Part shown: one piece after another, positions 29,423 to 64,000 of the stretch
How the letters are laid out: each line of letters begins with the position of its first letter
Numbering within the stretch: position 1 is the stretch's first letter
NCBI GenBank assembly: GCA_963750165.1
Contig: CAVVPN010000003.1
Span: forward strand, 2,688,001-2,752,000
Direction of reading: 5' to 3'
Source of the DNA: an uncultured Gemmataceae bacterium
Lineage (GTDB): Bacteria; Planctomycetota; Planctomycetia; Gemmatales; Gemmataceae
Length of the DNA stretch: 64,000 nucleotides
The notes under the pieces: model-generated
Told to the model about the DNA's origin: nothing
Database searches by the model: none
Seen by the model: the letters and a program-made list of their open reading frames with translations, nothing else
Program-made: the position numbers and the translations under genes

Positions 29423-29436
29423 GCGACGGAGACGTT

Positions 29437-42649: not shown

Positions 42650-42667
42650 CCTCTTTGGGGCACTGGA

Positions 42668-43597: not shown

Positions 43598-43640
43598 TCG
43601 CAAACCGTTCCGGCCCGTGAGCACTGTGGGTAAGGCGTTC

Positions 43641-45658: not shown

Positions 45659-45754
45659 TCACAGAGTAAACTAGAGGGGAACCCTCGGGCACACTGCCCG
45701 ACGCCCTCACTGCCTGCCCTCCCTGCTCGACAGGCTCAATCTTCGAGGAACGTT

Positions 45755-48290: not shown

Positions 48291-48333
48291 GGCGGCTGTA
48301 CGCCGCCCACCGCGTCTGTGTGAAGGAGAGGCC

Positions 48334-49287
48334 ATGGCAGTGGGTCAGCAAACCGAGGGGGAAGCGGTGAGCCGGGGGGCGCTCGTCCGCGTCCCGTGTC
48401 CGCTCTGTGAGGGGTCGGCCACGGGACGCGAGCGCAGCGTCAACGGCTTCACCCTGGAGCGCTGCCTGCACTGCGGGTTCGTCTTCGTCAACCCGCAGTT
48501 GCCCCCCAGCGCGCTGCTGGAGCAGTACGGTCACACCGATGTCGCGGCCCAACTCGCCGTCTGGGCACGCATCAACACCCCCACCATGCTCGCGGATTAC
48601 GACCGCGTGCTGGGGGAACTGGAGGCCGTGCTGCCGGGGCGCGGACGGCTGCTGGACTTCGGCTGCGGGCCGTGCTACTTCCTGGAGCGTGCCGCGGCGC
48701 GCGGCTGGGACGCGCACGGCGTGGAACTCGCCGGCTGGTCGCGCGAGGCGGCTCGGGTCCGCAATGTGACGGAGCGCCTGCACGTGGGCCTGCTCGCCGA
48801 CCAGCAATTCCCCGACGGCCACTTCGATGTGGTGTATTCGAGCCAGGTTCTGGAGCACCTGGCCCGTCCGAAGGCCGACCTGCGAGAGCTGTGGCGCGTG
48901 CTGCGGCCGGGCGGCGTCCTGTACCTCAACGTGCCGAACTACCACCGCCTGCCGGTGATGTTCCACATGGACGATTTTGTGCTCGACATGCCCATGGCGC
49001 ACGTCAATTACTTCACCCCGCGGAGCCTCGGCCGCCTGGCGGAGGAGTGTGGCTTCCGCGTGCTGCGCGTGACCACCTATGGCGGTCTGAAGTGGGAGAA
49101 CCTGCTCGGGCGATCCATCACCAGCGAGGTGGTGGACGCCGTGAACGCCCCCACCCAGGCCCCGCCCCCAACGAGCGTGCGCCGGCGCTCGCTGCCGGCA
49201 CGCCTGCTCGCGCCCCTGGTCAAGACGGTGGCCTACCGCTGGGCCAAACTCGGCCTGACCCTGGAACTGTTCGCCCGACGGCCGTAA
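48334..49287 (+). CDS. Class I SAM methyltransferase with N-terminal Zn ribbon
   Basis: CPLC..CLHC, LLDFGCG, VLEHL. Confidence 0.88.
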   Translation: MAVGQQTEGEAVSRGALVRVPCPLCEGSATGRERSVNGFTLERCLHCGFVFVNPQLPPSALLEQYGHTDVAAQLAVWARINTPTMLADYDRVLGELEAVLPGRGRLLDFGCGPCYFLERAAARGWDAHGVELAGWSREAARVRNVTERLHVGLLADQQFPDGHFDVVYSSQVLEHLARPKADLRELWRVLRPGGVLYLNVPNYHRLPVMFHMDDFVLDMPMAHVNYFTPRSLGRLAEECGFRVLRVTTYGGLKWENLLGRSITSEVVDAVNAPTQAPPPTSVRRRSLPARLLAPLVKTVAYRWAKLGLTLELFARRP

Positions 49288-49351
49288 GGCCGCGCCCGGT
49301 TCGTGCCCGCACGGTGGGAAACTTCAACCCTTGAAACGTCGAGGTAGGTTC

Positions 49352-50281
49352 ATGGCCTGGTTGGCAGAGCGAGTGCTGTATCGGCTCGTCAAGCTGTTTT
49401 ACCACACCGAGATTGCCCACAGCCGCCAGATGAAGGCGGCGGAGTCGGACATGGCCCTGTGCAGCGCGTACCGGCGCGGCGACGTGGTGCGCGTGCTCCG
49501 GGCCGCGCAGGCCTACGGCGTGCCGCTGGAGGGCCGCACCGTCCTCGACCTGGGTTGTAGCGACGGCAGTCTCACCTCTCAGTACGTTCAGTACGGCCCC
49601 GCCGAGGTGATCGGCGTGGACGTGCGCGCCGAGGAGGTCGCCCGCGCCCGGCAGCTGGCCGCGGGGCCGGGACTGCGCTACCTGGTCAGCACGCCGGACA
49701 CCATCCCGCTGCCCGACGAGAGCGTGGACGTGGTCGTCAGCTACGACGTGTTCGAGCACGTAACGCAACCGGCCGTCATCCTCCGCGAGTGCAGCCGGGT
49801 GCTGCGGCCGGGCGGCCGGATGCTGATCGGCACCTGGGGTTGGTATCATCCCTTCGCCCACCACATGTGGGCGACCATGCCGGTGCCCTGGGCCCATGTC
49901 CTGTTCTCGGAGCGGACGGTGATGCGGACCTCCCGCCGTGTCTACCTTTCGCCCTGGTACGAGCCGCGCATGTACGACCTCGACGTGCACGGACACAAGA
50001 TCCCCGACAAGTACACGGCGGACGTGATCCCGGTGGATTACGTGAACAAGTTTTTGATCCGCGACTTTGAAGACGCCTTTAAGTCCACCGGACTGCCGTA
50101 CAAAATCAACCTGGAACCGTTCGGCTCCCGGTATGCGCGGTGGACCCGGCTGTTTCTGCGCTTCCCGTATCTGCGGGAATATTTCGCGTCCTACTTCTGG
50201 GCCACGCTGACGAAGCCGGAGCGGGGACAGGCCGCCGCCCAGGCCCGTCGCCAGCCCGCGGTTGTGTTGCAGGCGAATTGA
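49352..50281 (+). CDS. Class I SAM methyltransferase
   Basis: VLDLGCSDG, DVFEHV, RVLRPGG. Confidence 0.88.
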   Translation: MAWLAERVLYRLVKLFYHTEIAHSRQMKAAESDMALCSAYRRGDVVRVLRAAQAYGVPLEGRTVLDLGCSDGSLTSQYVQYGPAEVIGVDVRAEEVARARQLAAGPGLRYLVSTPDTIPLPDESVDVVVSYDVFEHVTQPAVILRECSRVLRPGGRMLIGTWGWYHPFAHHMWATMPVPWAHVLFSERTVMRTSRRVYLSPWYEPRMYDLDVHGHKIPDKYTADVIPVDYVNKFLIRDFEDAFKSTGLPYKINLEPFGSRYARWTRLFLRFPYLREYFASYFWATLTKPERGQAAAQARRQPAVVLQAN

Positions 50282-50334
50282 GTAGTTGGGCCGTTGTTTC
50301 CCGATCCGTATCTCGAGCCAGCGTGAGGTGCCTA

Positions 50335-51165
50335 GTGACTTCGAGTGCGCAACCCCAGACGGACTCACGACCCCTTGAGGCCAGCCTGAACCCGGGCGCC
50401 GCGGCGCACCTGCCGCGGTCAACCGATCAAGCCGAAGCCCGAGTGCGCGGGCTGCTGGAGCAGGTCTACGGTGTCGCCCGCGACGCAGGCGATGACGCCT
50501 TCGTGCGCGCGGGCATGAGCGTCTCCGAGCTGGTGCGGCTGTACGAACTGGTCAGCGCCAATGGCTGCCGCTCCGCTCTGGAAGTAGGCATGGCCACCGG
50601 CACCAGTTCCCTGGCGATCTGCGCGGCGCTTGGGGACAACGGCGGCGGGCGCCTGGCGTCGATTGACCCGTTCCAGTCGTCGGCCTCCGGCTACGCTTCG
50701 GCAGGGGTCGAGAACCTGCGGAAAGCTGGGTTCGAGGGCGCGCACCGCCTCATCGAGCGGCCCGACTATCTCGCCCTCCCCGAATTGCTCGCTCAGGGGG
50801 AGCGGTTCGATTTCATCCTGATCGATGGCTGGCATTCGTTCGACTTCACCCTCGTGGACCTGTTCTACGCGGATCTGCTGCTGCGGACGGGTGGGGTGCT
50901 GGCGTTTCACGACACCACGGCCCCCCAGGTTTACAAGGCGGTTCGCTTCCTGGAACTGCACAAGCCGTACGAACGCCTGTCCCCGCCGTTGGCGAGGCAT
51001 ACCCCGTCTCTGGTCGGCAAGGTGGCGCGGCGCGTGCGGACCTGGCTGCGAGGCCCGGCTGCCCTGGCCGGGGCGAAGGAACGGCGTGAGAAATGGCGGA
51101 TGTTGGCCGCTTACCGCAAACAGGCCGATTCGCAAGTCGCCGAGGACCACGGGACACGGTTTTAG
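50335..51165 (+). CDS. Class I SAM methyltransferase (Methyltransf_24-like; start approximate)
   Basis: LEVGMATGTS, IDPF, LIDGWH, FHD. Confidence 0.85.
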   Translation: MTSSAQPQTDSRPLEASLNPGAAAHLPRSTDQAEARVRGLLEQVYGVARDAGDDAFVRAGMSVSELVRLYELVSANGCRSALEVGMATGTSSLAICAALGDNGGGRLASIDPFQSSASGYASAGVENLRKAGFEGAHRLIERPDYLALPELLAQGERFDFILIDGWHSFDFTLVDLFYADLLLRTGGVLAFHDTTAPQVYKAVRFLELHKPYERLSPPLARHTPSLVGKVARRVRTWLRGPAALAGAKERREKWRMLAAYRKQADSQVAEDHGTRF

Positions 51166-51214
51166 GCCCCGCGTTCGCGAACACCGCCGGCGGATTGGTG
51201 AAGGAACCGTCGTC

Positions 51215-52177
51215 ATGCTCCACCGACTCAGGAAACACCTGGCGTACAGCTACTTCAAGTATCGCACCGGGGGGATTTGCTCCACCCCGCCGCTGCCCTG
51301 CGACCCCGCCGCCGGCTGCGAAGTCCACACCATGCTCGGGGCGCGCGACCTGCCGATGTACCTGCTGGCGGTCAAGTCGCTGCTGCGCTTCGGGCCGCCG
51401 GTCGGTGTCGTCATCCACTCCGACGGCACCCTGACGAGCCGTGAGGTCAACCTGCTCCGCAATCAACTCCCGGGCGCCCGACTCGTGGACGCCGCCGAGG
51501 CCGACGCCCGCGCCCGCACCGCCCTGGGGGCCGACTCCTTCCTGTGGCGCTGCCGCGGCTTCGATGTCAACTACCGGCGGCTGATCGACACGGAGTTGTG
51601 GTGCAACACCCCCAAGCGGATCATCATGGACTCCGACGTCCTGGTACTGCGGCCGCCGCAAGAGGTCATCGACTGGGTCGAGCGCGGCGACGGCCCTTTC
51701 CTCATCGGCGTTCCGCCGAAGAACGCCGGCCCCACCGAGAAGGACACCGACCTGTCCAAGGTCCACGTCCAGGGCGTCTTCCGCGTCAAGTTGCAGGAGA
51801 TCGCCGCGGGCGTGGGGCTGCCGGCCGAGTTCCTGGACGGCACCACCGCCGGCTTCTACGGCTGCACCAACGAACTGTCGCTCGACCGCGTGGAGCGGCT
51901 CGTCAAAACGTGCCTGGACCTGAAGCTGCCACTGCATCACTGGGGCAGCGATCAGTGCATGGTCATCTACCTGCTCTCGGTCACCCGGGCGGTCCGGCTC
52001 AACCCGGAGTTGTATCTCAACTTCTGGCCGGAGGATCTGCCGCGCGTCGCCGGCGCCCACGTCGTCCACTTCCTGGGCACCAACCGGTTTTACAAGCATG
52101 TGTATACCAGCGAGGCGGTGAAAGTCGTCCGGGCGCTCCAGGCCGGGCAGGCGGTCCCGGCCCGGAATCCAGCGTGA
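51215..52177 (+). CDS. Nucleotide-diphospho-sugar transferase-like (GT-A, GT8-like) protein
   Basis: HSDG, IMDSDVL (DxD), SDQ, VVHFLG. Confidence 0.65.
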   Translation: MLHRLRKHLAYSYFKYRTGGICSTPPLPCDPAAGCEVHTMLGARDLPMYLLAVKSLLRFGPPVGVVIHSDGTLTSREVNLLRNQLPGARLVDAAEADARARTALGADSFLWRCRGFDVNYRRLIDTELWCNTPKRIIMDSDVLVLRPPQEVIDWVERGDGPFLIGVPPKNAGPTEKDTDLSKVHVQGVFRVKLQEIAAGVGLPAEFLDGTTAGFYGCTNELSLDRVERLVKTCLDLKLPLHHWGSDQCMVIYLLSVTRAVRLNPELYLNFWPEDLPRVAGAHVVHFLGTNRFYKHVYTSEAVKVVRALQAGQAVPARNPA

Positions 52178-52192
52178 CCGAGCGAGAGGCGC

Positions 52193-54223
52193 ATGGCTAA
52201 CACTCTGCTGATCGAACCCCCGGCGAACACCGTGGCCGCGAAGGTCCCCGGGTTCCGCTGTGACGACCACGGCAAGCCGGTCCTCCCGGCGTCGCCGGAG
52301 GCGCTGTACGCCTTCGGCGACCTGATCCGCCGCACCGAACAGCTGATTCTGGCGCAGTTCGGCCGCGGTCTGGTGTCCGGCACCACGCACACCTGTCTGG
52401 GCCAGGAATTGTGCCAGATGGCGGTGGTGCGCGCCCTCGACCACCCCGCCGATGCGGTGCTGTCCAACCACCGCAACCACGGCCACTTCCTCACCTACTC
52501 CGGCGAGTTCGTCGGCCTGGTGGCGGAGGTCATGGGCCGGCAGCGCGGCGTGTGTGGCGGCCGCGGCGGCAGTCAGCACCTGGCCTATCGCCACTTCCAC
52601 AGCAACGGCGTGCAGGGCGGTATGGCCGGCATCGGCGTCGGTCTGGCCCTGGCCCGCCAGCGCCGCCGGGAGCGGGCGGTTGTCGCCGTCCTGGTCGGCG
52701 ACGGCACCCTGGGCGAAGGGCTACTGTACGAGAGCCTGAACCTGGCCGGCGTCTGGCAGGTGCCGGCCCTGTTCGTGGTGGAGCACAACGGCATCGCCCA
52801 GACCACCTGCACCGCGGACACCGTCGCCGGCACCATTGAGGACCGCGGTCGTGCCTTCGGGCTGCCGGTCTGGCGGCTCGACGACGCCGACCCGGACCTG
52901 TTCCACCGAGCCGAGGCCGTCGTCGCCCAGGTGCGCGACAGCGGCCGGCCCGGCTTCCTGGTCATCGACACCCGCCGCCTGGGGCCGCACAGCAAGGGCG
53001 ATGACCTGCGCCCCGCCGCGGAGATGGAGGCCATCCGGACGCGCGACCCGCTCGCCGCCCTGGGGCGGCGCCTCCCCGAGTCGCTGCGCCGCGGCATCGA
53101 GGAGCGCAACGCCGCCTTCCTGCAACAGGTCGAAGCCGAGGCCGCCGCCTCCCCCGAGGCCCGCGACCAGGAGCCACCGCGGCACCTCTTTACCGCCGCC
53201 GCCGAGCCCGCCCCGGCACCGCCGCCGAGCCCGCCCCGGGCCAACGTCCGCGCCGCGCTCAACGCCGGCCTGCGCCACCTGCTCGACAGCGCGGATGACA
53301 CCCTGCTGCTCGGCGAGGACCTGCACGACCCCTACGGCGGCGCCTTCAAGGTGACCGCCGGCCTGTCCACCGACTTCCCAGGACGCGTCCTGTCCACGCC
53401 GATCAGCGAGGCCGGCATCGCCGGTGTGGGCATCGGCCTGGCCCTGGCCGGCCTGCGGCCCGTCGTGGAAGTCATGTTCGCGGACTTCCTGACGCTGTGC
53501 CTGGATCAGCTGTACAACCACGCGGTCAAGTTCCCCGGCGTCTTCCCCGACCTGCGCGTGCCGCTGGTGGTGCGCGCCCCCAGCGGCGGACGGCGCGGCT
53601 ACGGCCCGACGCACAGCCAGAGTCCGGAGAACCTGTTCACCGCCGTCCCGGGCTTGACGGTGGTCTTCGGCAGCCACCGCCACGACAACGGCCGCCTGCT
53701 GGTCAACGCCAGTCAGGGTTGGCCCTACCCGGTGCTATTCTTCGAGCACAAATTGCTCTACAGCGAGACGCAGGCCGCGGGCGATTACCGGCTGCTGGCC
53801 GCCGTCGCCACGGACGCCGCGGCGGAGCTGTTCCCCACTCTGGTGCGCGGCGGCGGCCAGCCCGACGTGACCGTGCTGACCTATGGCGGTATGCTGCCGG
53901 TCGTGGAGGAAGCGGTCCGCCGCCTGGAGGAGCGCGAGGAACTCGCTGTTGAGGTGGTGGTGCCGGCGCTGCTGGCGCCGTTCCCGCGCACGACGCTGGT
54001 CGGCCATCTGCGCGACCGGCCGCGCGTGGTGGTGGTGGAGGAAGCTCATCATCAGTTCGGCTACGGCGCGGAAGTGCTGGCCAACCTGCTGGAGGCCGGC
54101 TTCCGTGGTCGAGCGCTGCGGGTCGGCACACCACCGGTGCCCCTGGCTTCGGCCCGCAGCCTGGAGAAACAGCTCATCCCGGACGCGGAGGCGGTCGCCC
54201 GCGCGGTGCTGCGACTGTTCTGA
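52193..54223 (+). CDS. Fused E1 alpha+beta, ThDP-dependent 2-oxoacid dehydrogenase/transketolase-like
   Basis: GTTHTCLGQE, GDGTLGEG...HN, TPISEAG, EVMFADF, YGPTHSQ. Confidence 0.92.
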   Translation: MANTLLIEPPANTVAAKVPGFRCDDHGKPVLPASPEALYAFGDLIRRTEQLILAQFGRGLVSGTTHTCLGQELCQMAVVRALDHPADAVLSNHRNHGHFLTYSGEFVGLVAEVMGRQRGVCGGRGGSQHLAYRHFHSNGVQGGMAGIGVGLALARQRRRERAVVAVLVGDGTLGEGLLYESLNLAGVWQVPALFVVEHNGIAQTTCTADTVAGTIEDRGRAFGLPVWRLDDADPDLFHRAEAVVAQVRDSGRPGFLVIDTRRLGPHSKGDDLRPAAEMEAIRTRDPLAALGRRLPESLRRGIEERNAAFLQQVEAEAAASPEARDQEPPRHLFTAAAEPAPAPPPSPPRANVRAALNAGLRHLLDSADDTLLLGEDLHDPYGGAFKVTAGLSTDFPGRVLSTPISEAGIAGVGIGLALAGLRPVVEVMFADFLTLCLDQLYNHAVKFPGVFPDLRVPLVVRAPSGGRRGYGPTHSQSPENLFTAVPGLTVVFGSHRHDNGRLLVNASQGWPYPVLFFEHKLLYSETQAAGDYRLLAAVATDAAAELFPTLVRGGGQPDVTVLTYGGMLPVVEEAVRRLEEREELAVEVVVPALLAPFPRTTLVGHLRDRPRVVVVEEAHHQFGYGAEVLANLLEAGFRGRALRVGTPPVPLASARSLEKQLIPDAEAVARAVLRLF

Positions 54224-54300
54224 CGCTGGCCCAGCCCGTAGGATACACGGACAGGGCCTCCCACCCCGTCGCCGAACCAGACACTCCGGAACAGACCGTC

Positions 54301-55395
54301 ATGCCTTACCCGCTGCGTGTACCGCGTGTCAACAACAATGACGACTCCGCCCGGCTGCTGCGCGTGCTCGCCCAGAAGGGCGAGGCCGTGCGGCGCGGCG
54401 CCGTGGTCGCGGAGATCGAAACGGACAAGTCGGTGGCCGACGTGGAGGCCGAGCAGGACGGCTACGTCCTCCAGATCGTCGGCGTCCCCGGTCAGGAAGT
54501 GGCCGTCGGTGGCGTTCTGCTCTGGCTGGGCGACCGGCCCGATGAGCCCGTGCCGGCGGCGGACGAGTCGGGGCCGACGCCGGTTGCCGCCGCCAGCGCG
54601 GAGCCCACGGCCAAGGCCCGGGCCTTGCTCGCCGAGCACGGCCTGCGGACCGAGGAGGTGCCGGCCACGGGAGAGCGGCTGACCGTCGCAGACGTGGAGG
54701 CGTTCCTGGCGCGGCGTGCCGCCGGGGCAGGGCCGGCGCCGGCGCCGAAGTCCAAAGGGCCGGGGCCGCTCGCCGCCGGGGAGACGCGGCCGCTGACGGT
54801 GGAGGAGCGCGGCATGCTTCACACCGTCACCTGGCACCGCGACGAGGCCGTGGCTACTTACCTGGAGATGGAGTACGACCCGAAGCCCTGGGATGCGCAC
54901 GCCGCCACATTCGCGACGGAACGCAAGTTGCTGCTCAGTCCGCTGCTGCCCTTGCTGGCCCACCGCCTGGCCGAGGTGGCGCGGGCCACGCCCCGGGTCA
55001 ACGCGACCCTGGTGGACGGGCAGTTTTACCAGTATCGGCAGGTGAACCTTGGCTTCACGGTGCAGGCCGGTGAGCTACTTTACCTGGTAGTGGTGCAGGA
55101 CGCCGGCGCCCTGGACGCGGCCGGCTTCGTCAACCGCCTGGGGGAGCTGCAACGCCGGGCGGTGGCACGGAAGCTGCGGGCCGAGGAGACGCAGGGCGCG
55201 ACGGTCGGCTTCACCAGCATGGCCCGCTGGGGCGTGCGGCAACACGTGCCGGTGCTGCCGCCCTACTGTTCGCTGATGGTGGCCCATGCCGCGCCGCGCC
55301 AGGGCGGGCCGGCGGTGCTGGGCGCCAGCTACGACCACCGCGTGCTGAGCGGTTTCGACGTGGTGCGCGTGCTCCAGCAACTGACCCAACCGTGA
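54301..55395 (+). CDS. E2-like dihydrolipoyl acyltransferase (lipoyl, binding and divergent catalytic domains)
   Basis: EIETDKS lipoyl motif; SYDHRVLSG. Confidence 0.85.
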   Translation: MPYPLRVPRVNNNDDSARLLRVLAQKGEAVRRGAVVAEIETDKSVADVEAEQDGYVLQIVGVPGQEVAVGGVLLWLGDRPDEPVPAADESGPTPVAAASAEPTAKARALLAEHGLRTEEVPATGERLTVADVEAFLARRAAGAGPAPAPKSKGPGPLAAGETRPLTVEERGMLHTVTWHRDEAVATYLEMEYDPKPWDAHAATFATERKLLLSPLLPLLAHRLAEVARATPRVNATLVDGQFYQYRQVNLGFTVQAGELLYLVVVQDAGALDAAGFVNRLGELQRRAVARKLRAEETQGATVGFTSMARWGVRQHVPVLPPYCSLMVAHAAPRQGGPAVLGASYDHRVLSGFDVVRVLQQLTQP

Positions 55396-55410
55396 GGCCG
55401 GGGGGAACCC

Positions 55411-55677
55411 ATGAACTTGCAACGCGATGCCGTCAAGGCTGCCATCCACGGCCGCGTGGTGGAGCTGGCGCGCCGGCTCGGCGGCGACCCCAGCGGGTTC
55501 ACCGACGATGACCTGTTGCCAGCCACGGGCCTGCTCGACTCCGCGGCACTGCTGGAACTGGTGGCGTGGTACGAGGCCGAGTACCGCCTGACGCTGCGGC
55601 AGGAGGACATCAACATCGACAACCTGGGGTCGGTCAACGCCATGACGGACTTCGCACTTGCCCGTCGGGCGGACTGA
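55411..55677 (+). CDS. Acyl carrier protein
   Basis: 88 aa acidic protein, GLLDSAALLELV phosphopantetheine site. Confidence 0.85.
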   Translation: MNLQRDAVKAAIHGRVVELARRLGGDPSGFTDDDLLPATGLLDSAALLELVAWYEAEYRLTLRQEDINIDNLGSVNAMTDFALARRAD

Positions 55678-55686
55678 GGCGCCACC

Positions 55687-56705
55687 ATGCAACGCGAACT
55701 CATCCAGATCCCGGAAAGCACCGGCCCACGTTGTCGGTGGTGATCCACACAGAAGAAGAATTCGAGTGGGGCCGGCTCGACCGCACGGCTACTGCCGTCA
55801 CCCACATGGACCACATCCGCCGCGTCCAGGACCTGTTCGACGAGCAGGGGATTGTGCCGACCTACGTGGTGGACTACCCGATTGTGGACCAGGACGCCGG
55901 CTGTCGTCCGCTGCTGGACTTCGCCGCCGATGGCCGCGCCGTGATCGGCGCCCACCTGCACCCGTGGGTGTCGCCGCCGCACGTCGAGGCGCTGAACTTC
56001 TTCAACTCGTATCCTGGCAACCTGCCCTGCGATCTGGAGCGCGAGAAGCTGACGCAGCTGACGGAGCGCATCGCCGCGCGCTTCGGTGTTCGGCCGACGG
56101 TGTACCTGGCCGGCCGCTACGGCTTCGGCCCCAACACCGCGGCGCTGCTGGAGGACCTGGGCTACGAGGTGGACGTCAGCGCCATCGTGCCGCTGGACTT
56201 CAGCGGCGACGGCGGGCCGGATTATTCGGGCTACACCAACCATCCGTACTGGTTCGGCCGGCGCCGCCGGCTGCTGGGACTGCCCTGCACCGGCGACTTC
56301 GTGGGCTGGTTGCCCGGCGGCAAACGGCGGCTCCACTGGCTGGCCTCGCGGCCCCTGGGGGAGCGGTTGCGGCTGCGCGGCGTGCTGGCGCGGCTCCGGG
56401 CGGTGGAGCGCATGAGCCTGACCCCCGAGGGGCACACCAACGCGGAACTGCGCCGCCTGACGCGCTCCCTGCTGCGCCGCGGCTTCCGCACCTTCGTGTT
56501 CAGCTTTCACTCGCCGTCCATCCAGCCCGGCTGCACCCCCTATGTCCGCGACGCCCACGAACTGCGGACCTTCCTTGACAACTGCCGCGATTACTTCACC
56601 TTCTTCCTGAAGGAGCTGAACGGCGTCGCCCGGACGCCGTTGCAGATTCGTGCTGACCTGGAGCAGCCCTGTGCGGTCGCGGCACCGCTGGCCGTCCAGT
56701 CGTGA
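55687..56705 (+). CDS. Polysaccharide deacetylase (WalW-like); frameshift at ~55713
   Basis: ATG 55687 (MQRELIQIPE) joins VIHTEEEFEW, GAHLHPW, AGRYG, FSFHSPS after a one-base shift in an A run. Confidence 0.82.
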
Positions 56706-56714
56706 GGCGGTCAG

Positions 56715-57500
56715 TCACTGCTTCTGAATGTACCACTTCTGATAATTGTCGCGCTCGATCTCGACCGGCCGCTCCGGCCTGTCCGCCAGGAACTCGTCGA
56801 TGGCCTGGTTGCAGCCCGGCCACGGTGGGTCATTGTACTCGTCGAAAAGGATGATGCCCCCAGACGACAGGCGCGGATAAAAGAACTCCAGGCACTCCTT
56901 GTAAGACTGGTAGATGTCGCAATCCAGGTGGACGAAGCAGAACCGACGGTCGGCGAAGGCAGGCAGGGTGGCCGCGAAATAACCCCTGGTGACGCGAACC
57001 ACGTCCCCCAGCTGGAGCCGTGCGATCTTTTCCAGGACCGTCTCGTAGGAGGTTTCGTTGAAGCCGCCGACGCGCTTGTCGCTGCTGGCGGCGCCGCCGA
57101 GGCGGATGTCAATGTTGACGGCCTCGTCGAAACCCTCGAAGGAGTCGAAGCCGAGGACGGCCTTGGCGAGTTGATGCTGCTTGACGTACAGGCCCAGCGC
57201 CAGCAGACTCGACGCCCGGAAGACGCCGCACTCGGCCACGTCGCCGGGCACCGCGGCGGTGCGCCCCAGCAGTTCAAACAGGATGTTGATGTTCGACTCG
57301 CCCTCGGGCGACTTGACCGGTTTGGGGCGGACGGCGCGCGGCACCTTCACCTCGAGCAGTCGCGCCCACCGGGCCGGGCAGCGCTCCACGGGGGTGTTGC
57401 GCAGGACGGCGTACGCGACCGCCTGGGCCGTGTGCCGCGCGCCTGTGCGGTGCCAGAGCCAGCTTCGCAGCCGTTTCCACAGAGGTTTGGGTTCACTCAT
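56715..57500 (-). CDS. TylF/MycF-type sugar O-methyltransferase
   Basis: AECGVFR, FDSFEG, HLDCDIY, FDEY, WPG. Confidence 0.88.
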   Translation of the reverse strand: MSEPKPLWKRLRSWLWHRTGARHTAQAVAYAVLRNTPVERCPARWARLLEVKVPRAVRPKPVKSPEGESNINILFELLGRTAAVPGDVAECGVFRASSLLALGLYVKQHQLAKAVLGFDSFEGFDEAVNIDIRLGGAASSDKRVGGFNETSYETVLEKIARLQLGDVVRVTRGYFAATLPAFADRRFCFVHLDCDIYQSYKECLEFFYPRLSSGGIILFDEYNDPPWPGCNQAIDEFLADRPERPVEIERDNYQKWYIQKQ

Positions 57501-57527
57501 GGTCGCCGCCTCCCGCCCGGCCTGGCG

Positions 57528-58382
57528 TTACACGTTCAGGGCCACAATCTCCGAATACAGGTTCGCCATGTCCGCTTCGCCAAGGGTGTCGCTGCGGTAC
57601 ATCTTGTCAGGGAAGCCACCCACCTGGGCCGACAACCGCGGTCGGCGCGGCAGGAACCGCGATTCGATGCGCGTGCTCAGCATACCGTGCCGCAGCAGGA
57701 AAAAGCGCCCCAGGGTGAAGCGGTAGCGCAGGAACAGTTCCGGATCACTGACGGCCAGCACCGTCGCGCAGGGCAGTCGTTTCAGCAGTCCCTTGCGGTA
57801 GACGACGTGACAGAAGGCGCCCGGCCGACCCACGGCCACGTGCCGTAGCCAGTGCAGGTGGCGGTGGTCGCGGAAGACCTGGACGTCCGCGGGCGCCAGC
57901 ACGCGCTCCAGCGCCGCCGGGTCGGTCACCACGCGCACGCCCGGAATCCAGCCCGGCAAGTTGGGCAGCACTGTCATGCGCACGTCCATCGGCTTGAACT
58001 TGAGGAAGCGCAGCGCCCCCGCCACCACCGCAGTCGGTGTCAGGTCGGTGAAGTGAAATCCTGGTTGGGCGACGAGCGTCATCGCCAGGCGCAGGCTGTG
58101 GGCGCGGTACGGCTCCAGGACGCACCAGCTGGTGATGTTGCAGAACCGCTCCGGTTGACCGCGAATGACCCGCTCCGCGTAGATGGCGCCGATGCCGCCG
58201 CCGATCTTGCCTTTGGCGTCGCGGAGCAGAAAGCCGTGATTGGGCATCGCCAGCCGCCAGTCCTGACGGAACGCGGTCACCCAGTCCGCCACGGCAATCC
58301 GCGGGTTCAGGTGCTCGTGCAGGAACGCGCAGAACTCCGGCAAGTCCTCGTCGCGGATGGGGTGGATCGTCGGCAGCGACAT
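57528..58382 (-). CDS. GNAT-like hypothetical acyltransferase
   Basis: IRDEDL, FCNITSWCVLEPYRAHS resembles GNAT motif A. Confidence 0.55.
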   Translation of the reverse strand: MSLPTIHPIRDEDLPEFCAFLHEHLNPRIAVADWVTAFRQDWRLAMPNHGFLLRDAKGKIGGGIGAIYAERVIRGQPERFCNITSWCVLEPYRAHSLRLAMTLVAQPGFHFTDLTPTAVVAGALRFLKFKPMDVRMTVLPNLPGWIPGVRVVTDPAALERVLAPADVQVFRDHRHLHWLRHVAVGRPGAFCHVVYRKGLLKRLPCATVLAVSDPELFLRYRFTLGRFFLLRHGMLSTRIESRFLPRRPRLSAQVGGFPDKMYRSDTLGEADMANLYSEIVALNV

Positions 58383-58504
58383 GCGTGCAGCAGTCCGAAG
58401 GGTGATGGCATACGTCGGGGCCGGGGGCAGTGTATGAATCCTGCTGTCCCAAACAAGAGGGAAACACCCCCATCAGGCAGGTTTACAAAGTGTCTGGCGT
58501 GCAG

Positions 58505-58522
58505 TGTCAATCTCGGTTTACA
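58505..58522. promoter_or_regulatory. TGT-N12-ACA enhancer-like box
   Basis: TGTCAATCTCGGTTTACA, with extra GGTTTACA (58480) and GGGTTACA (58526) half-sites. Confidence 0.65.
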
Positions 58523-58650
58523 ACAGGGTTACACCTGTCGGGAGGGGCACCGGTTCGCCACCCAGGCCCCTCCACATTGTATTTTCTAAGACCTGTTCCT
58601 GGAAGAAGTTATAGAAAAATCGCCGCTTCTGATCTGGTGAGAGCGTGGCA

Positions 58651-58666
58651 CGGCACCAACTTTGCC
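58651..58666 (+). promoter_or_regulatory. sigma54-type promoter
   Basis: CGGCACCAACTTTGCC (GG-N10-GC). Confidence 0.68.
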
Positions 58667-58787
58667 AGAAGAAGAGGTGAATTCCCCATTGCTGTTGGAC
58701 CGCGACGGGTCGAGGCGGTGACCGGATGACCCAACCATCACCTTACGACCAAACATCCCCGCACGAGCTACCAGGCGTGAGCCGACT

Positions 58788-59867
58788 TTGAGCGACCGCA
58801 TCCAACCCACTTTCGATCCCCCCACCGCTGAACCGGGTCCCGCGGTGTCTCTGACTCCCCCGTCGGCTCGCCGCCGGCCGCACGCCTGGCGGCACCGGCT
58901 GCTCGTCGTGGCCAAACTGGGGTTCGCGGCCGCTCTGCTGACCTGGCTGTTCGTCAGCGGCCGGCTGGAGCTGGGCGGCCTGGCGGCGCTGGCGCCGTCC
59001 GCTGCCACACCGCTGGTCGTGGCCCTGGTCGCAGCCTGGCTGCTGTTGCCGGCGGTGCGCTGGTGGTGGCTGCTGCGGCTCCAGCACCTGCAAACGTCGC
59101 TGCCGCGCGTGCTGGCGCTGAGCTGGGTGGGCTACTTCACCACCTGCTTCCTGCCGGGAGCGACCGGCGGCGACCTGGCCCGGGCTTACCTGATTTGTCG
59201 CCGCCACCCCGGACTGCGGTTGCGGGCGCTGGCGAGTGTGGTGGTGGATCGCGCCGTGGGCATGTACAGCCTGCTCCTGCTGACGACCCTGTCCGGCGTG
59301 TGGTTGGTCTGCCGTCAGGGCCTGTCCCCGGCGATCGCCAACCTGGCCTGGCTGACCCTGACGCCCCTGGCGGCCATGACCCTGGGCGGAGCGATCCTGC
59401 TGTTCCAGGCTCCGCGCGAGGCGGGTCTGCGGCTGCTGCCGCGACGCTGGCGGCCGGCGTGGCGCAACTATTTGGGAGCGTATCGGGCCGGGCTGACCGG
59501 CGTGCTGACCTGCCTGGGACTGTCCCTGGCCAGCAGCGCCGTGGGCGTCCTGGCTCTGGCCGCGGTGGCGGACCTGCTGGGCCACCCCCTGCCGTTGGGG
59601 GTCGCCTTCCTGGCCGGGCCCCTGGTGTTCCTCAGCAACTGCCTGCCCGTGAGTCCCGGCGGAATCGGCTTCGCGGAAGCCACCTCGGACGTACTGTTGA
59701 ACTCCCTGGGCATCCTGGGCGGGGCCGAGATGATGCTGCTGTTGCGCATCTTCACCGTGGCTCTCTCCCTGCCCGGCGCCCTGGGGCTGCTGCATCCGGG
59801 GACCACGGAAACACCTGGCCCAGTCCAGCCGGGGGCGGAACCAGTCGCCGCGGCGGCGACCGCCTGA
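58788..59867 (+). CDS. Lysylphosphatidylglycerol-synthase TM domain / flippase-like protein
   Basis: RWWWLL, LPGATGGDLARAY, DRAVG, PVSPGGIGFAE. Confidence 0.85.
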   Translation: MSDRIQPTFDPPTAEPGPAVSLTPPSARRRPHAWRHRLLVVAKLGFAAALLTWLFVSGRLELGGLAALAPSAATPLVVALVAAWLLLPAVRWWWLLRLQHLQTSLPRVLALSWVGYFTTCFLPGATGGDLARAYLICRRHPGLRLRALASVVVDRAVGMYSLLLLTTLSGVWLVCRQGLSPAIANLAWLTLTPLAAMTLGGAILLFQAPREAGLRLLPRRWRPAWRNYLGAYRAGLTGVLTCLGLSLASSAVGVLALAAVADLLGHPLPLGVAFLAGPLVFLSNCLPVSPGGIGFAEATSDVLLNSLGILGGAEMMLLLRIFTVALSLPGALGLLHPGTTETPGPVQPGAEPVAAAATA

Positions 59868-59902
59868 ATGGACCGACTTCTCACGCAACACGAGGCTTTT
59901 TC

Positions 59903-60963
59903 ATGACGCCGACCAGCCAATCGGACGGGATCCTGACCCTCGCCGCACCGCCCACGCACCCGGAGGTTGGGTCGCCGACGCCGGCGGTCGCCGACCGGCA
60001 GGGCGGGCTGCTGGCACGGGTGCTGCCGTACGTCTCCATCGCGCGCCCCGACCACTGGTTCAAGAACGTCTTCATGGTCGCCGGCGTGATGCTGGCCCTG
60101 TTCTGCCATCCCGAGACGCTCGGCTGGGATCGCCTCGTGCCCTTCCTGTGCGCCGTGGCGGCCACCTGCCTGCTCGCCTCCAGCAACTACGTCATCAACG
60201 AAATCCTGGACGCGCCCAGCGACCGCAGCCATCCCAAAAAGCGTTTGCGTCCCATCCCGTCCGGCGCGTGTGGCTGCCGCTCGCCTACGCCGAGTGGGTC
60301 CTGCTCGGCGCCGCCGGTCTGCTGCTGGCCCAGACGGTGAACTGGCCGTTCTTCTGCGCCGGCCTGTTCCTGCTGGTCATGGGCATCATCTACAATGTGC
60401 CGCCGCTGCGCTCCAAGGAAGTGGCCTACGTGGACGTGCTGTCGGAGGCCATCAACAACCCCATCCGGCTGCTGCTGGGCTGGTTCGTGATGACGGCGAC
60501 GTTCTTCCCGCCGGTGTCGCTGCTCATCGCTTACTGGATGATCGGCGCCTTCTTCATGGCGACCAAGCGGATGGCCGAGTACCGCTCCCTGGGCGACCGG
60601 AGCGTGGCCGGGGCCTACCGCAAGTCGTTCCGCCATTACACGGAGGAGAGCCTGCTCGTCAGCATGTTCTTCTACGCCACCAGTTTCGCCCTGTTCCTTG
60701 GCGTCTTCATCATCCGCTACCACCTGGAGCTGATCCTGACCTTCCCGCTGCTGGCCGGTTTCGTCTGCTACTATTTGCACATCGCCTTCAAGAAGGACAG
60801 CGCCGCCCAGGCTCCGGAGAAGTTGTATCGCGAGAAGGGCCTGACGCTTTACCTGGTCGTCTGCGTGCTCGCCTTCTTCCTGCTGATGTTCACCAACATC
60901 CCCGTGCTGTACAAGTTCTTCAACGTCACCGCCTCGCCGGTGGCGCCGCTGTGGGAGTTTTAA
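59903..60963 (+). CDS. UbiA family, polyprenyl-phosphate phosphoribosyltransferase-like; frameshift at ~60265
   Basis: RPDHWFKN, NYVINEILDAPSDRSHPKKRLRPIPSG, KRMAE. Confidence 0.82.
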
Positions 60964-61006
60964 CCGTCGGCCCGGCGCTGTCTTTGACCAAAGGATACGG
61001 CTCGCA

Positions 61007-62464
61007 ATGAGTTCAACGCTTGTCCTCGGCCTGGCTGCCACCGGGGCCGCCCCGGCGGCGCCGGCCGCGGCCACCGAGCTGTCGCCCGTCGCCGCTCGCC
61101 GGGCCCTGTTCTGGATCCTCCTGCTCGGCGCCGTCGTTCGGCTGGCGCTGTTGCTGTGGTCCTGGAACCAGCCGCTGTCCATCGAGGACGAGCAGCACTA
61201 CCACCTGCTGGCGGTCAACCTGGTCCGTTACGGCGAGTTTGCCGACGCTCCCGGCGAGCTGACCTCCATCCGGCCGCCGCTGTTCCCGTTCCTGGTGGCC
61301 GGCGTGTACGCGGTCTGCGGCACCGAGGCGCTGGCGGCGGTCCGGCTGCTGCAGGCCGTGCTGAGCCTGGCGACGGTGCTGATCGCTTACCGGCTGGGCG
61401 TGGCGGTCGCTTCGCGGCGCGTCGCCCTGTGGTTGGCGAGCGCGCTGTGTTTCTACCCGTCGCTGCTGGGCTTCAACACCCTGCTGTTGACCGAGGTGCT
61501 GTTCACCTTCCTGCTCAGCGCCTTCTGCCTGCTGGTGGTGCTGTCGGTGCGCCGCGGCTCGCTGGCGGGCATGGCGGCGGCGGGCGGCGTGCTCGGACTG
61601 GCCGCTCTGACGCGCAGCGTCATGTGGTTGTTCCCGCCGGTGCTGGCCGTCTTCCTGCTGTTCGCCTGGCCCGGGCCGCTGTGGCGACGCCTGGCCGCGG
61701 GCGCCCTGGTGGGCCTGGCGTTCGCGGCCGTCATCGCTCCGTGGTCGATCCGCAACACGCAGTTGCAGAAGGTGTTCACGACCATCGACGTGATGGGCGG
61801 CCGCAATTTCATGATGGGCAACTACCGCTATACCCCCCTGTACCGGTCCTGGGACGCCATCGGCCTCAAGGGGGAGGAGAGCTGGGCGTACGAGGTCAGG
61901 ATGACCTATCCCGCCGCGGAACGGGACACGCAGGGAAAAATTGATAAGCTGGCGCTGCGCCAGGGGCTACAATTTGTGCGGGAGCACCCGGGACTGACCC
62001 TGCTGCGCGATCTGGTGAAGTTCTTCGACTTCTGGGGCCTGGAGCGGGAGTTGGTTGCCGGCGCCGTGCGCGGCTACCTCGGCCCGCTGTCGAAACCGGC
62101 GCTGGCCCTGGTGGCGCTGGCGATCTTCGGCAGTTATGCCCTGGCCGTGTTGCTGGCCCTGTTCGGCCTGGTGATGGCGCCGCCCGCTGATCGACGGTCC
62201 TGGTGGTTCCTGCTGCTGGTGGTGGTGTTCGTCTGCGGCATGCACACGCTGGTGTTCGGCCACTCGCGCTATCACCTGCCGCTCATGCCGATCGTCCTGC
62301 TCGGCGCCGCCTGTGCCTGGGTGCAGCGCCGGCAGCTCTGGCAACAGCGGCGCAGCCGGGCCTTCCTGGCGGCGTGCGGATTGTGTGGCGTCCTGCTGGT
62401 GGGCTGGCTCTGGCTGTTCGTGGCCGTTGACCTGAAACTGTTCCTGAGCGCGATGGGCGGTTGA
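61007..62464 (+). CDS. GT-C (ArnT/GT39-like) glycosyltransferase
   Basis: EDEQHY, RPPLFP, LLTE, PWSIRN, SRYHLP. Confidence 0.85.
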   Translation: MSSTLVLGLAATGAAPAAPAAATELSPVAARRALFWILLLGAVVRLALLLWSWNQPLSIEDEQHYHLLAVNLVRYGEFADAPGELTSIRPPLFPFLVAGVYAVCGTEALAAVRLLQAVLSLATVLIAYRLGVAVASRRVALWLASALCFYPSLLGFNTLLLTEVLFTFLLSAFCLLVVLSVRRGSLAGMAAAGGVLGLAALTRSVMWLFPPVLAVFLLFAWPGPLWRRLAAGALVGLAFAAVIAPWSIRNTQLQKVFTTIDVMGGRNFMMGNYRYTPLYRSWDAIGLKGEESWAYEVRMTYPAAERDTQGKIDKLALRQGLQFVREHPGLTLLRDLVKFFDFWGLERELVAGAVRGYLGPLSKPALALVALAIFGSYALAVLLALFGLVMAPPADRRSWWFLLLVVVFVCGMHTLVFGHSRYHLPLMPIVLLGAACAWVQRRQLWQQRRSRAFLAACGLCGVLLVGWLWLFVAVDLKLFLSAMGG

Positions 62465-62547
62465 CCGGACGATTCTTCCAGGGAATTTTCACTCGCATCC
62501 CTGGGGTCGGCGCTCGTCGTGACCGTTTTGTGTACTGGGAAGCAATT

Positions 62548-64000
62548 ATGCCCGGAATTTGTGGCGCCCTGAGTGTGACTCCTCGTTCGGACCCGGACGG
62601 CCTGGTGGCCGAGATGGTCCGGCGGATGAAACATCATCCCTGGTACGTCGAGCAGCAGCACGCCACTGCCGCCGGCGATCTGACGCTGGGACAGGTCACG
62701 CTCGGCCACGGGAACGCCGTCCCTCAATCCGGGTCCAACGAGGACGGCTCGCTGTTGGCGGTGATGGAAGGCGAGTTGCACAACTATGACGAGGAGCGGC
62801 GCCGTCTGGAAGCGGCCGGCCACGTCTTCCACTCCGACAGCCCGGCCGAACTGCTGGCGCACGGCTTCGAGCAGGAGGGCAAGGCGTTCTTCCGCCGCCT
62901 GAACGGCCTGTTCGCGGTCGCGCTGTGGGACGCGGGCCGACGGCGGCTGTACCTGGCCAATGACCGCTTCGGCATCAAGGCGCTGTATTACAGTCAGGCC
63001 GCCGGCAAACTGCTGTTCGCCTCGGAGGTCAAGGCGCTGCTGGCCGACCGGCACTTGCCGCGGGCGGTGGACCCGCGTGGGGCGGCCCAGTTCTTTACCT
63101 ACGGCCACCTGTTCGGGGAAGACACGCTGCACCAGGGCGTGCGGCTGTTGCCGGCCGCGGGCTGGCTGACTTACGACGCGGCCGAGGATCGCCTGACGGT
63201 GGAGCGCTACTGGCGTTTCGAGCCCGGAGCGGTCGCAGCGCCGGCCAGCGAGCCGGAGCAACTGGACCGCCTCGCCGACGCCTTTCGGCGCGCGGTGGCA
63301 CGGCGGACGGGCGGCGACGAGCGATTGGGGCTGTCGCTTTCCGGCGGCCTGGACGCCCGGACGATCCTGGGCGTGGTGGCCGCCGACCGCGAACTCACCT
63401 CCGTCACCCTGGGCATCCCGGGCAGCATCGACCACTGCGTTGCCGCGGAACTGGCGCGCGTGGCCGGGCGGCCGCACCGCAACTTCGTGCTGGACGAGCA
63501 ATTCCTGTCGCGGTTCGAGGACCACCTGCGCTGGATGGTCCACCTGACCGATGGCCACTACCTGTCGCAGTGCATCGTCATGCCGACGCTGCCCGTCTAC
63601 CGCGACCTGGGCATTCAGGTGTTGCTGCGCGGCCACGCCGGCGAGTTGATGCACCTGGACAAGGCGTACAACTTCTCGCTCGACAGCGAAGGGCTGGCGC
63701 TGCGCGACAGCACCGCCCTGGAGAGCTGGCTGTGGCGGCGGTTGCAGACGTACATGCTGGACGAACTGCGCGAGCCGCTGTTCGCCCCCGGCTTCCACTG
63801 CGACGCTGCGGAGCTGGCGCGGGCCTCGCTGCGCGACTGCCTGGCGGAGACGGACGAGGTGACGCCGCCGGCCCAGCGCGTCAGCCATCTGTTCCTGGCC
63901 CAGCGGGTGCGCCGCGAGACCGCTCTGTCGATGCTCGAGTTCGGCTCGCTCGTGTCCATCCGGCTGCCGTACCTGGACAACGACCTGGTGGACGCGCTGC
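62548..64000 (+). CDS. Asparagine-synthase-like amide ligase (3' partial), lacking the N-terminal Cys
   Basis: Not in the ORF track (runs off the window end); my translation gives MPGICG, EGELHN, LNGLFAVALWD, DRFGIKALYY, LSGGLDAR, RLPYLDND. Confidence 0.85.
   Translation, partial: MPGICGALSVTPRSDPDGLVAEMVRRMKHHPWYVEQQHATAAGDLTLGQVTLGHGNAVPQSGSNEDGSLLAVMEGELHNYDEERRRLEAAGHVFHSDSPAELLAHGFEQEGKAFFRRLNGLFAVALWDAGRRRLYLANDRFGIKALYYSQAAGKLLFASEVKALLADRHLPRAVDPRGAAQFFTYGHLFGEDTLHQGVRLLPAAGWLTYDAAEDRLTVERYWRFEPGAVAAPASEPEQLDRLADAFRRAVARRTGGDERLGLSLSGGLDARTILGVVAADRELTSVTLGIPGSIDHCVAAELARVAGRPHRNFVLDEQFLSRFEDHLRWMVHLTDGHYLSQCIVMPTLPVYRDLGIQVLLRGHAGELMHLDKAYNFSLDSEGLALRDSTALESWLWRRLQTYMLDELREPLFAPGFHCDAAELARASLRDCLAETDEVTPPAQRVSHLFLAQRVRRETALSMLEFGSLVSIRLPYLDNDLVDAL

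Follow-up and report, generated by a model that had tools for sequence, protein, structure and literature searches.

A five-gene cassette in a Gemmataceae glycan locus with a possible role in glycolyl-ACP-dependent N-acyl exchange on amino sugars

Introduction

The question raised by the locus described here is what an acyl carrier protein (ACP), encoded directly behind E1 and E2 proteins resembling those of pyruvate dehydrogenase (PDH), is loaded with, and to which acceptor the acyl group is passed. The locus lies in a stretch of 64,000 nucleotides from an uncultured Gemmataceae bacterium (positions 2,688,001 to 2,752,000 of contig CAVVPN010000003.1), referred to as the window. Genes for a fused E1, an E2, the ACP and a WalW-type protein follow each other on the plus strand of the window, and a gene for a GNAT-type acyltransferase lies convergent to them. 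The results suggest a five-gene cassette, present across phyla, in which glycolyl-ACP would serve to exchange the N-acyl group of an amino sugar in a surface glycan, a reading to which we assign an even chance.

Which genes underlie the unusual N-acyl groups of bacterial glycans is an open question. In the available part of PMC5378307, the genetics of N-glyceroyl groups is given as unknown and called a major challenge, and N-glycolyl nonulosonic acid is stated not to have been described in bacteria as of 2017. The cassette offers a concrete, testable route to glycolyl groups. Both halves of the proposed pathway have precedent, one in the Qnc-type loaders of non-ribosomal peptide synthetase (NRPS) clusters, the other in the deacetylation and re-acylation pairs of the Nod factor and tunicamycin pathways. 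No description of their union with two unannotated protein families was found in the literature searched, which was mainly open-access.

Results

The thiamine diphosphate enzyme

The first gene (52193..54223, plus strand) encodes a thiamine diphosphate (ThDP) enzyme of 676 aa in which E1 alpha and beta are fused, PF00676, PF02779 and PF02780 being matched in one open reading frame (ORF). Its best plasmid match was RenH of the renieramycin cluster (35.8% identity, 3e-90), which is likewise a fused E1αβ and is followed by the E2 protein RenI. Both proteins carry the motifs GTxHTCxGQE, SNHRxHGH, GGSQH, HSKGDD, PYGGAFK and RGYGPTHSQ, unlike PDH and acetoin dehydrogenase, and at each active-site motif the window protein matched RenH and differed from PDH, acetoin dehydrogenase and branched-chain 2-oxoacid dehydrogenase (BCKDH).

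In a maximum likelihood tree (36 rows, 613 columns, LG+G4; three loci that held just half of E1 or were too short were excluded), the cassette E1s, those of the sister cassette described below, RenH and two E1s linked to polyketide synthase (PKS) genes stood apart from all housekeeping types (ultrafast bootstrap (UFBoot) 100, branch 0.67). Approximately unbiased (AU) tests, made on 19 rows of which four, RenH and the window among them, did not pass the composition test, rejected a grouping of the cassette with PDH (p 9e-39) and with acetoin dehydrogenase (p 1e-10). RenH was the sole Qnc-type reference in the E1 comparisons and is itself assigned by homology. The NCBIfam PDH score of E1 was 164.8 bits against a cut-off of 393.85, and E1 and E2 fell below all NCBIfam cut-offs. 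Comparison of the E1 clade and motifs, and of the hydrolase-type AcoC, did not place the system with acetoin dehydrogenase (AcoABC) either. An identity as housekeeping PDH or acetoin dehydrogenase was therefore rejected on the basis of scores, motifs and AU tests. A phylogeny of this kind had been proposed as a check in a preliminary description of this DNA, made from the sequence alone; its outcome sets E1 with RenH and not with housekeeping PDH, acetoin dehydrogenase or BCKDH. From its clade, the enzyme is predicted to act on a ketose phosphate and split off a C2 unit.

E1 and E2 proteins of the Qnc clade were also seen within PKS clusters on plasmids of S. cattleya (L171), where a FabH-like gene is added, and of Paenibacillus (L172), where a methyltransferase and two ACP genes are added. 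In a genome of the same family as the host, locus L211 (G864:C543, 1174-8619, minus strand) holds an Acyl_transf_3 protein, a DegT aminotransferase, a fused E1, a fusion of a lipoyl domain with a hexapeptide acyltransferase, and a methyltransferase. This E1 falls on the Qnc-like side of the tree, with 47% identity to the window E1. The lipoyl-hexapeptide fusion is found in 186 clusters at E ≤ 1e-20, its neighbourhood being known from L211 alone. The gene content of L211 suggests a parallel, ACP-less route, in which the lipoyl arm may deliver its acyl group directly to a sugar amine.

E2 and the dedicated ACP

The second gene (54301..55395, plus strand) encodes an E2 protein of 364 aa, composed of a lipoyl domain (PF00364), a linker and an acyltransferase domain (PF00198). 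The lipoyl domain has Lys43 in the motif ETDK, and the catalytic domain, a weak match, ends in DHRVLSG, with Asp345-His346-Arg347 and with Ser replacing the usual second Asp. Among 120 homologs this motif ended in SG (101), TG (14) or NG (5) and in none of them in DG, and RenI has DHRVLTG; judged from these alignments, the odd motif is a family-wide trait. The lipoyl motif was kept in 114 of the 120 homologs. The PDH-type NCBIfam score of E2 was at most 67 bits, and the family, many of whose members are named PDH E2 in databases, comprises 1124 clusters at E ≤ 1e-40. The protein is predicted to be a lipoyl-to-ACP transferase.

The ACP (55411..55677, plus strand, 88 aa) gave weak family matches, including one to PP-binding (E 0.045). 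Its Asp43-Ser44 pair is present in all 12 aligned family members, and Ser44 is the predicted phosphopantetheine site. The best NCBIfam match was an ornithine-lipid ACP, far below the cut-off (31 vs 130 bits). In all 11 genome loci an ACP gene comes after E2. E1α, E1β, a lipoyl-E2 and a dedicated ACP are encoded together without E3, and loading of the ACP by E1 and E2 is highly probable.

The GNAT protein as ACP partner

The acyltransferase gene (57528..58382, minus strand) encodes 284 aa of an unnamed family with 1220 clusters at 50%. No named family was matched, and the assignment is based on an AlphaFold2 (AF2) model with a predicted local distance difference test (pLDDT) of 97.6, which folds as a tandem GNAT (Z 14.3, root mean square deviation (rmsd) 4.0, 260 aligned residues to an Eis-like protein). 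Other fold matches at Z 13-14 were N-myristoyltransferase and glucosamine N-acetyltransferases, tied or close behind, and the substrate is not given by fold likeness. The CoA-binding pyrophosphate loop of GNATs has the form R/QxxGxG/A. This loop was kept in just four of 115 aligned rows, which fits an ACP-bound donor.

The modelled complex of GNAT and ACP scored 0.61, the best of three controls scoring 0.02; among reference cases, 116 of 157 solved complexes attain the mark used for such models, as do 2 of 215 mismatched pairs, and likeness to solved complexes of GNAT folds with ACPs could contribute to the score. Contacts agreed between runs to at least 98%, with a partner pLDDT of at least 87. 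In the modelled interface, ACP residues 37-48, including Ser44, touch GNAT residues 93-101 and 119-128. The model supports binding, the GNAT being a likely ACP partner, and its use of acyl-ACP as donor is considered very probable.

Members of the GNAT family were matched in 50 of 401 Pseudomonadota genomes. In 40 regions around such matches (108 of 145 flanking ORFs were scanned), the neighbours included WalW (10), AMP-ligase (5), PIG-L (4), E1 (4), FkbH (2) and aminoacyl-ACP ligase (1); many regions showed none of these among the ORFs scanned. The family adjoins FkbH, AMP-ligase and aminoacyl-ACP ligase loaders and deacetylases of the WalW, PIG-L or NodB type, often amid glycosyltransferases. 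On plasmid p_2 of S. meliloti RCAM1115 (L173, 9154-14637), a member is accompanied by an exosortase-A-type ligase, a PLP decarboxylase, an ACP, a GT2 glycosyltransferase and a polysaccharide deacetylase. Matching plasmid records from Sinorhizobium numbered 27; an Aureimonas plasmid carries a member with genes similar to the S. meliloti set, and a Paludibaculum plasmid one with an FkbH-like HAD-IIIC protein, a deacetylase and glycosyltransferases. Since the family neighbourhoods vary in both components, loader and deacetylase look interchangeable around one GNAT transferase.

Further arrangements of the family were noted. In L150, L151, L152 and L153 the GNAT gene lies beside a PIG-L deacetylase; in three of these the deacetylase is a protein of about 510 aa with an extra N-terminal part, which is weakly methyltransferase-like in L151. 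MBOATs and an ACP are present in L150 and L152, an aminoacyl-ACP ligase in L150 and a Qnc-type E1α in L151. One operon of ACP, FkbH, a MaoC-SDR fusion and GNAT (L135, 8088-12603) is a candidate for a lactyl- or glyceryl-ACP route.

The WalW-type protein

The fourth gene (55687..56705, plus strand) gave no Pfam or NCBIfam match. Its relatives form at least 2876 clusters at 90%, one homolog bearing the UniRef name 'WalW protein', and no characterised WalW was found in the literature searched. The AF2 model (pLDDT 89) has a CE4 fold, with HP0310 as best match (Z 23.3, rmsd 2.7, 235 aligned) and a deacetylase of M. smegmatis at Z 23.0; sequence searches against the Protein Data Bank (PDB) with WalW, the GNAT protein and the ORF upstream of E1 gave no significant match. 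Residues E21-E22, H88-x-H90, G141-R142-Y143, D161 and H273, counted from base 55692 in the open frame, are conserved in 97-98 of 98 rows. A putative de-N-acetylase is indicated by the fold, and on the model deacetylase activity is likely.

Starting from WalW, the GNAT gene was adjacent in 16 of 80 metagenome loci, including all 15 above 500 bits. Ten of these 16 show E1 or E2, and the other six end inside GNAT. The remaining 64 loci, many of them short contigs, are without the cassette genes, and the 28 with flanks scanned are mostly exopolysaccharide (EPS) or exosortase loci. A carbamoyltransferase directly follows distant WalW genes in L028, L036, L050, L058 and L066, hinting at a sequence of deacetylation and then carbamoylation in EPS loci.

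Occurrence of the cassette

A search of species genomes with E2 found 11 loci, from Beta-, Gamma- and Alphaproteobacteria, Acidobacteria and Gemmatimonadetes. E1-E2-ACP was intact in ten, the eleventh starting inside E2 without upstream DNA, and WalW and GNAT lay directly behind these genes in eight. In-frame fusions of WalW and GNAT in one ORF were found in L004, L006, L008 and L009, and in protein P0050. Apparent fusions in L022 and L133 were rejected as shadow-frame artefacts. Co-occurrence in other genomes, the second check proposed in the preliminary description, is thus borne out by the eight loci and the four fusions. With gaps of 9-77 nt in the window and a gene set that recurs in other phyla, the clustering is not due to chance.

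In L005 and L010 a GNAT of a different family accompanies E1-E2-ACP. An ORF of 309 aa in these loci was not counted as a deacetylase, being CE4-like by eye only, without a clear assignment from hhalign, Pfam or PDB searches.

The cassette is rare and patchy. No E2 match at 1e-40 was obtained in 400 other genomes of the phylum, and an E1 above 36% identity occurred in one of 150 genomes of the same family. Three further genome samples gave 0/300, 1/350 (a plain sucB) and 0/299 matches, G1818 being left out of the scoring of the last. The sucB match, of G1545 to the E2 profile, belonged to an ordinary sucA-sucB-lpd set.

A sister cassette with the order E1αβ-E2-methyltransferase-ACP-GNAT-WalW was found in three related genomes (L130, 3461-9853; L136; L137), in each case adjoining a gene for N-acetylmuramoyl-L-alanine amidase. 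The insertion of an S-adenosylmethionine (SAM) methyltransferase gene behind E2 and ahead of ACP is in keeping with an acyl group that carries a free hydroxyl, and from its gene order the sister cassette is a candidate methoxyacetyl-ACP system.

The window and its genome

The host genome (9.6 Mb in 12 contigs, about 66% GC, 93% complete; the window is part of its contig C3) supplies an aceE-type PDH, two E3 genes over cut-off, lipA and two phosphopantetheinyl transferases. A further PDH is therefore not needed, and reoxidation, lipoylation and ACP priming can be supplied by the genome. According to Pfam and NCBIfam scans, the cassette lies in a glycan locus of the exosortase/EPS type (25953..64000, plus strand), which contains an exosortase, a Wzc-type kinase, a priming transferase, GT2 and GT4 glycosyltransferases, a Wzy-like protein and a Wzm/Wzt ABC pair, as well as a pyruvyl transferase, several methyltransferases and an amidotransferase resembling Asn synthase. 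The stretch 39654-51165 is crowded with methyltransferases (a second TylF, Methyltransf_11/23/24) and also holds a gene of the 2-oxoglutarate-type Asp/Arg hydroxylase family and the pyruvyl transferase; read from this gene content, the glycan is heavily decorated.

Within the cassette, the gaps between E1, E2, ACP and WalW are 77, 15 and 9 nt. WalW and GNAT are separated by a TylF-family O-methyltransferase gene (56715..57500, minus strand, PF05711 5e-24), located 27 nt downstream of the latter on the same strand; TylF and GNAT are both convergent with the other four. TylF was rejected as a cassette member, no tblastn match being obtained in 11 of 11 related genome loci, and by this comparison is a local insertion outside the conserved cassette. 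The ORF 15 nt before E1 (51215..52177, plus strand), GT-A-like by eye only and with no Pfam, NCBIfam or PDB match, is absent from the same 11 loci and was likewise rejected. No sigma-70 promoter-like site was found, and terminator-like sites were near the shuffle mean.

The WalW ATG at 55687 is shifted by one base against the reading frame of the gene body, in which a GTG at 55737 is in frame. The upstream ATG yields the family N-terminus MQRELIQIP (homolog P0152 begins MQRELIHVP). Split genes occur elsewhere in this genome too (aceE, shc), and the one-base frameshift is therefore probably an assembly indel. More apparent frameshifts in the window, each spreading a gene over two frames, affect a zinc-ribbon-led protein (45755-48290), a UbiA-family gene (59900-60963) and an Asn-synthase-like gene (22849-24971), and are consistent with assembly indels.

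The preliminary description had named E1, E2, ACP, a WalW-like deacetylase and a convergent GNAT-like gene, all of which were recovered at this place inside a glycan locus. Its account of an E2 with an intact lipoyl lysine and DHRVLSG holds, and E3 was absent, as it had said, from the window ORFs scanned or read, the E3 matches of the genome sitting elsewhere. The label WalW-like agrees with the homolog name and the CE4 fold, and the gene called GNAT-like, which matched no family, is modelled as a tandem GNAT. The gene content of the run therefore stands, but the TylF gene and the frameshift at the start of WalW had been missed.

Discussion

Proposed pathway

According to the scheme proposed here, the fused ThDP enzyme would act on a ketose phosphate, e.g. 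xylulose-5-P or fructose-6-P, as its clade suggests, cutting off a C2 dihydroxyethyl unit and passing it oxidatively to the lipoyl arm of E2. His346 of E2 would then shift the glycolyl group to the phosphopantetheine of the ACP, not to CoA, and a housekeeping E3 would reoxidise the lipoyl arm; this is the best supported part of the scheme. In its weakest part, WalW would remove the N-acetyl group of an amino-sugar precursor that is present in the cytoplasm in nucleotide- or lipid-linked form. The GNAT protein is predicted to bind the ACP at its N-terminal donor site and to acylate the freed amine, and host glycosyltransferases would build the re-acylated sugar into the glycan. No membrane acyltransferase is among the five conserved genes, which points to exchange in the cytoplasm.

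A sugar amine is a quite probable acceptor and, from sequence comparison, a ketose-derived glycolyl group a probable acyl unit; for the unmasking of the amine by WalW the prospects are slightly better than even. A wider proposal, that the portable cassette makes N-glycolyl or O-methylglycolyl amino sugars without an oxygenase, and that the GNAT proteins form a large group of acyl-ACP:amino-sugar transferases served by exchangeable loaders, for glycolyl, for glyceryl/lactyl (through FkbH) and for aminoacyl (through ligases), is put forward tentatively, at somewhat less than an even chance.

Compared with the preliminary description, in which the donor was a 2-oxoacid or a ketose, the choice has been narrowed towards ketose-derived glycolyl by the evidence. 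The relay from E2 via ACP to GNAT has gained support from the GNAT fold, the CE4 fold and the interface model, but canonical CE4 motifs 1 and 2 were not matched letter for letter. Decoration of a surface glycan fits the window, which is a glycan locus, but is not the general setting of the cassette.

Evidence against the proposed pathway and alternative explanations

Several findings weigh against glycolyl exchange on a surface glycan. The position of WalW mapped to the motif-1 Asp of CE4 enzymes (position 19) is His in 22 of 98 rows, including the window, and Asp in 76, and motif 2 reads HxH, not H(S/T)xxH, the mapping being made by sequence position and general CE4 chemistry and not by superposition. 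E21-E22, H88-x-H90, R142-Y143 and H273 sit at corresponding places. Canonical CE4 enzymes have an Asp-His-His metal triad with the motifs TFDD and H(S/T)xxH, as described in the part of PMC6115787 consulted; motifs 1 and 2 are therefore not matched letter for letter. The WalW gene of the window is frameshifted as assembled. L007 has E1-E2-ACP without WalW and without this GNAT, and 26 of the 40 GNAT regions had neither WalW nor PIG-L among the matches. Glycosyltransferases were near just two of 11 genome loci (118 of 164 ORFs scanned) and at five of 10 metagenome loci with flanks scanned. The cassette E1s share only 33-38% identity with RenH and sit on a long branch of their own (0.52), so their donor may differ from that of RenH. 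An E2 gene adjoining an ACP gene is found elsewhere too: acsA-pdhA-pdhB-E2-ACP clusters with the canonical DHRxxDG were seen on Streptomyces and Sulfitobacter plasmids (L176, L177), and such adjacency alone is therefore no proof of a ketose donor.

One unlikely alternative is that the same acyl-ACP relay serves a glycan without exchange, the amine being provided by an aminotransferase (or a hydroxyl being acylated) and WalW editing a mis-acylated carrier or product, or transacylating. The His in the WalW subclade of the window leaves room for an editing role, and the 64 of 80 WalW loci without this GNAT sit with carbamoyltransferases, Acetyltransf_6 proteins and Asn synthases; in addition, L211 pairs its Qnc-clade E1 with a DegT aminotransferase and has no deacetylase in the 8.6 kb contig. 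The WalW-GNAT fusions, however, retain Asp at the motif-1 position, PIG-L de-N-acetylases stand in for WalW beside the same GNAT family in four of 40 regions, and no aminotransferase was present in the cassette loci scanned, save a weak class-III fragment in L009.

It is rather unlikely that the acceptor is a lipid or small molecule, e.g. an amino- or glucosaminyl-hopanoid or a secreted metabolite, and not a polysaccharide. In L002, L003, L008, L009 and L010 the cassette stands alone between housekeeping genes, as it does in methanotrophs, a setting compatible with a common precursor, UDP-GlcNAc for example, but also with a lipid or small molecule. Squalene-hopene cyclase (shc) was matched in eight of 10 cassette genomes, seven over cut-off; a deacetylase step on a GlcNAc-hopanoid, by HpnK, is described in the part of PMC12583986 consulted; and an ornithine-lipid ACP was the best NCBIfam match of the ACP (31 vs 130 bits). 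Against this, the shc count is not an independent test because the taxa are related soil and freshwater groups, and two of the 10 genomes, of unestablished completeness, gave no shc match. In the flanks scanned, genes for hopanoids, NRPS, PKS or exporters were not recurrent neighbours of the cassette, and WalW relatives, as well as plasmid relatives of the GNAT, sit in glycan loci. The methanotroph 'methylcarbamate' hopanoids, which are isomeric with N-glycolyl compounds, were dropped as a candidate product: in the part of PMC5100885 consulted they were assigned tentatively after acetylation and were present in all methanotroph strains tested, whereas the cassette is rare.

A different short acyl-ACP, made from pyruvate (acetyl) or from some other 2-oxoacid, with all else as in the favoured pathway, is quite unlikely. 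The separate branching of the cassette E1s from RenH, the single Qnc-type reference and the existence of PDH-E2-ACP clusters speak for it. On the other hand, an exchange of acetyl for acetyl needs no dedicated system, aceE is present in the genome, the substrate-site motifs fit RenH and not PDH or BCKDH, and the methyltransferase of the sister cassette suggests a hydroxyl.

PDH-E1-like proteins in glycan loci are known to make C-branched sugars of the yersiniose/aldgarose type, and the window is a glycan locus; that the ThDP enzyme adds a C2 unit to an NDP-keto sugar is nevertheless very improbable, this route needing no lipoyl E2 or ACP. In all 10 loci that include upstream DNA, E1 is followed by both, and 114 of 120 E2 homologs retain the lipoyl motif. 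A spare housekeeping pyruvate or acetoin dehydrogenase, placed in the glycan locus by chance and favoured by database names that call E2 homologs PDH E2, is largely refuted by the AU tests on both groupings, by scores below all NCBIfam cut-offs, by aceE elsewhere in the genome and by the lack of an E2 match at 1e-40 in 400 other genomes of the phylum.

Implications

On the wider proposal, a GNAT family with interchangeable loaders would explain unusual N-acyl groups found on glycans of bacteria; if glycolyl exchange on an amino sugar is correct, Qnc-type loaders would extend from NRPS clusters to cell-surface chemistry. First candidate functions would be available for two unannotated families, the WalW type and the GNAT, with at least 2876 clusters at 90% and 1220 clusters at 50%, respectively, and probable mis-annotation is indicated for more than 1100 E2 clusters, of which many bear the name PDH E2. 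Tractable carriers are the cultured Methylomonas aurea SURF-1 (L003), in which all five genes read through, for the cassette and the large S. meliloti plasmid for the GNAT family.

Comparison with known systems

The closest parallel is found in the two-component 'transketolase' loaders of glycolyl-ACP of the Qnc, Nap, Ren and Scl systems (QncN-QncL-QncM, RenH-RenI, SclQ1-4), which also combine E1-like ThDP domains, a lipoyl-acyltransferase E2 and a dedicated ACP without an E3 of their own. In the part of PMC13249901 consulted, RenH and RenI are assigned by homology to the Qcn7/Qcn9 reaction, which turns ketoses into an ACP-bound glycolyl/glycolate unit, and the part of PMC6335953 consulted describes QncN/L/M and SclQ1-4 as the same kind of glycolyl-ACP loader. 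The cassette shares with RenH/RenI the layout of a fused E1αβ and a separate E2 and the E2 motif DHRxL[ST]G, at 33-38% (E1-RenH) and 21% (E2-RenI) identity; as far as the source describes them, QncN and QncL are split elsewhere, with E1β fused to E2 in QncL. Unlike these clusters, the cassette lacks NRPS and PKS genes, its predicted acceptor enzyme is a stand-alone tandem GNAT with a CE4-fold protein, and it lies in or near glycan loci. Because the scan of flanking ORFs, in the window and at the 11 genome loci, showed no NRPS or PKS domain, the cassette would work like a Qnc/Ren loader but is not classed as such a cluster.

From housekeeping PDH, acetoin dehydrogenase and BCKDH, with which it shares the domain content of E1 and E2, the lipoyl lysine and the catalytic His, the cassette differs in its active-site motifs, the missing DHRxxDG, the lack of E3 in the operon and the attached ACP, and AU tests rejected the grouping with PDH and acetoin dehydrogenase.

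On the acceptor side, NodB and NodA of the Nod factor pathway similarly pair a CE4-fold deacetylase with an N-acyltransferase that takes an ACP-bound acyl group, according to the part of PMC5080398 consulted. The cassette has no NodA or NodB match in Pfam or NCBIfam and no NodC, and its predicted C2 unit would come from a ThDP/lipoyl loader and not be a fatty acid; the likeness is one of analogy only, not of membership. Tunicamycin biosynthesis is known to swap acyl groups through TunE, TunC and TunK, the deacetylase belonging to the PIG-L family. There the acyl donor is fatty and the product a secreted nucleoside. As in the cassette, N-deacetylase, acyltransferase and ACP are encoded in one cluster, a likeness taken from a gene table (PMC6965331) and not from sequence comparison. 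Finally, the acyl-ACP genes of exosortase-A loci (TIGR03098 ligase, TIGR03099 decarboxylase, ACP) and the FkbH glyceryl-ACP systems have the same GNAT family beside them, with a deacetylase and glycosyltransferases, as seen in S. meliloti, Aureimonas, Paludibaculum, L123 and L135. These systems are themselves only predicted and have a different loader, hence a different acyl group.

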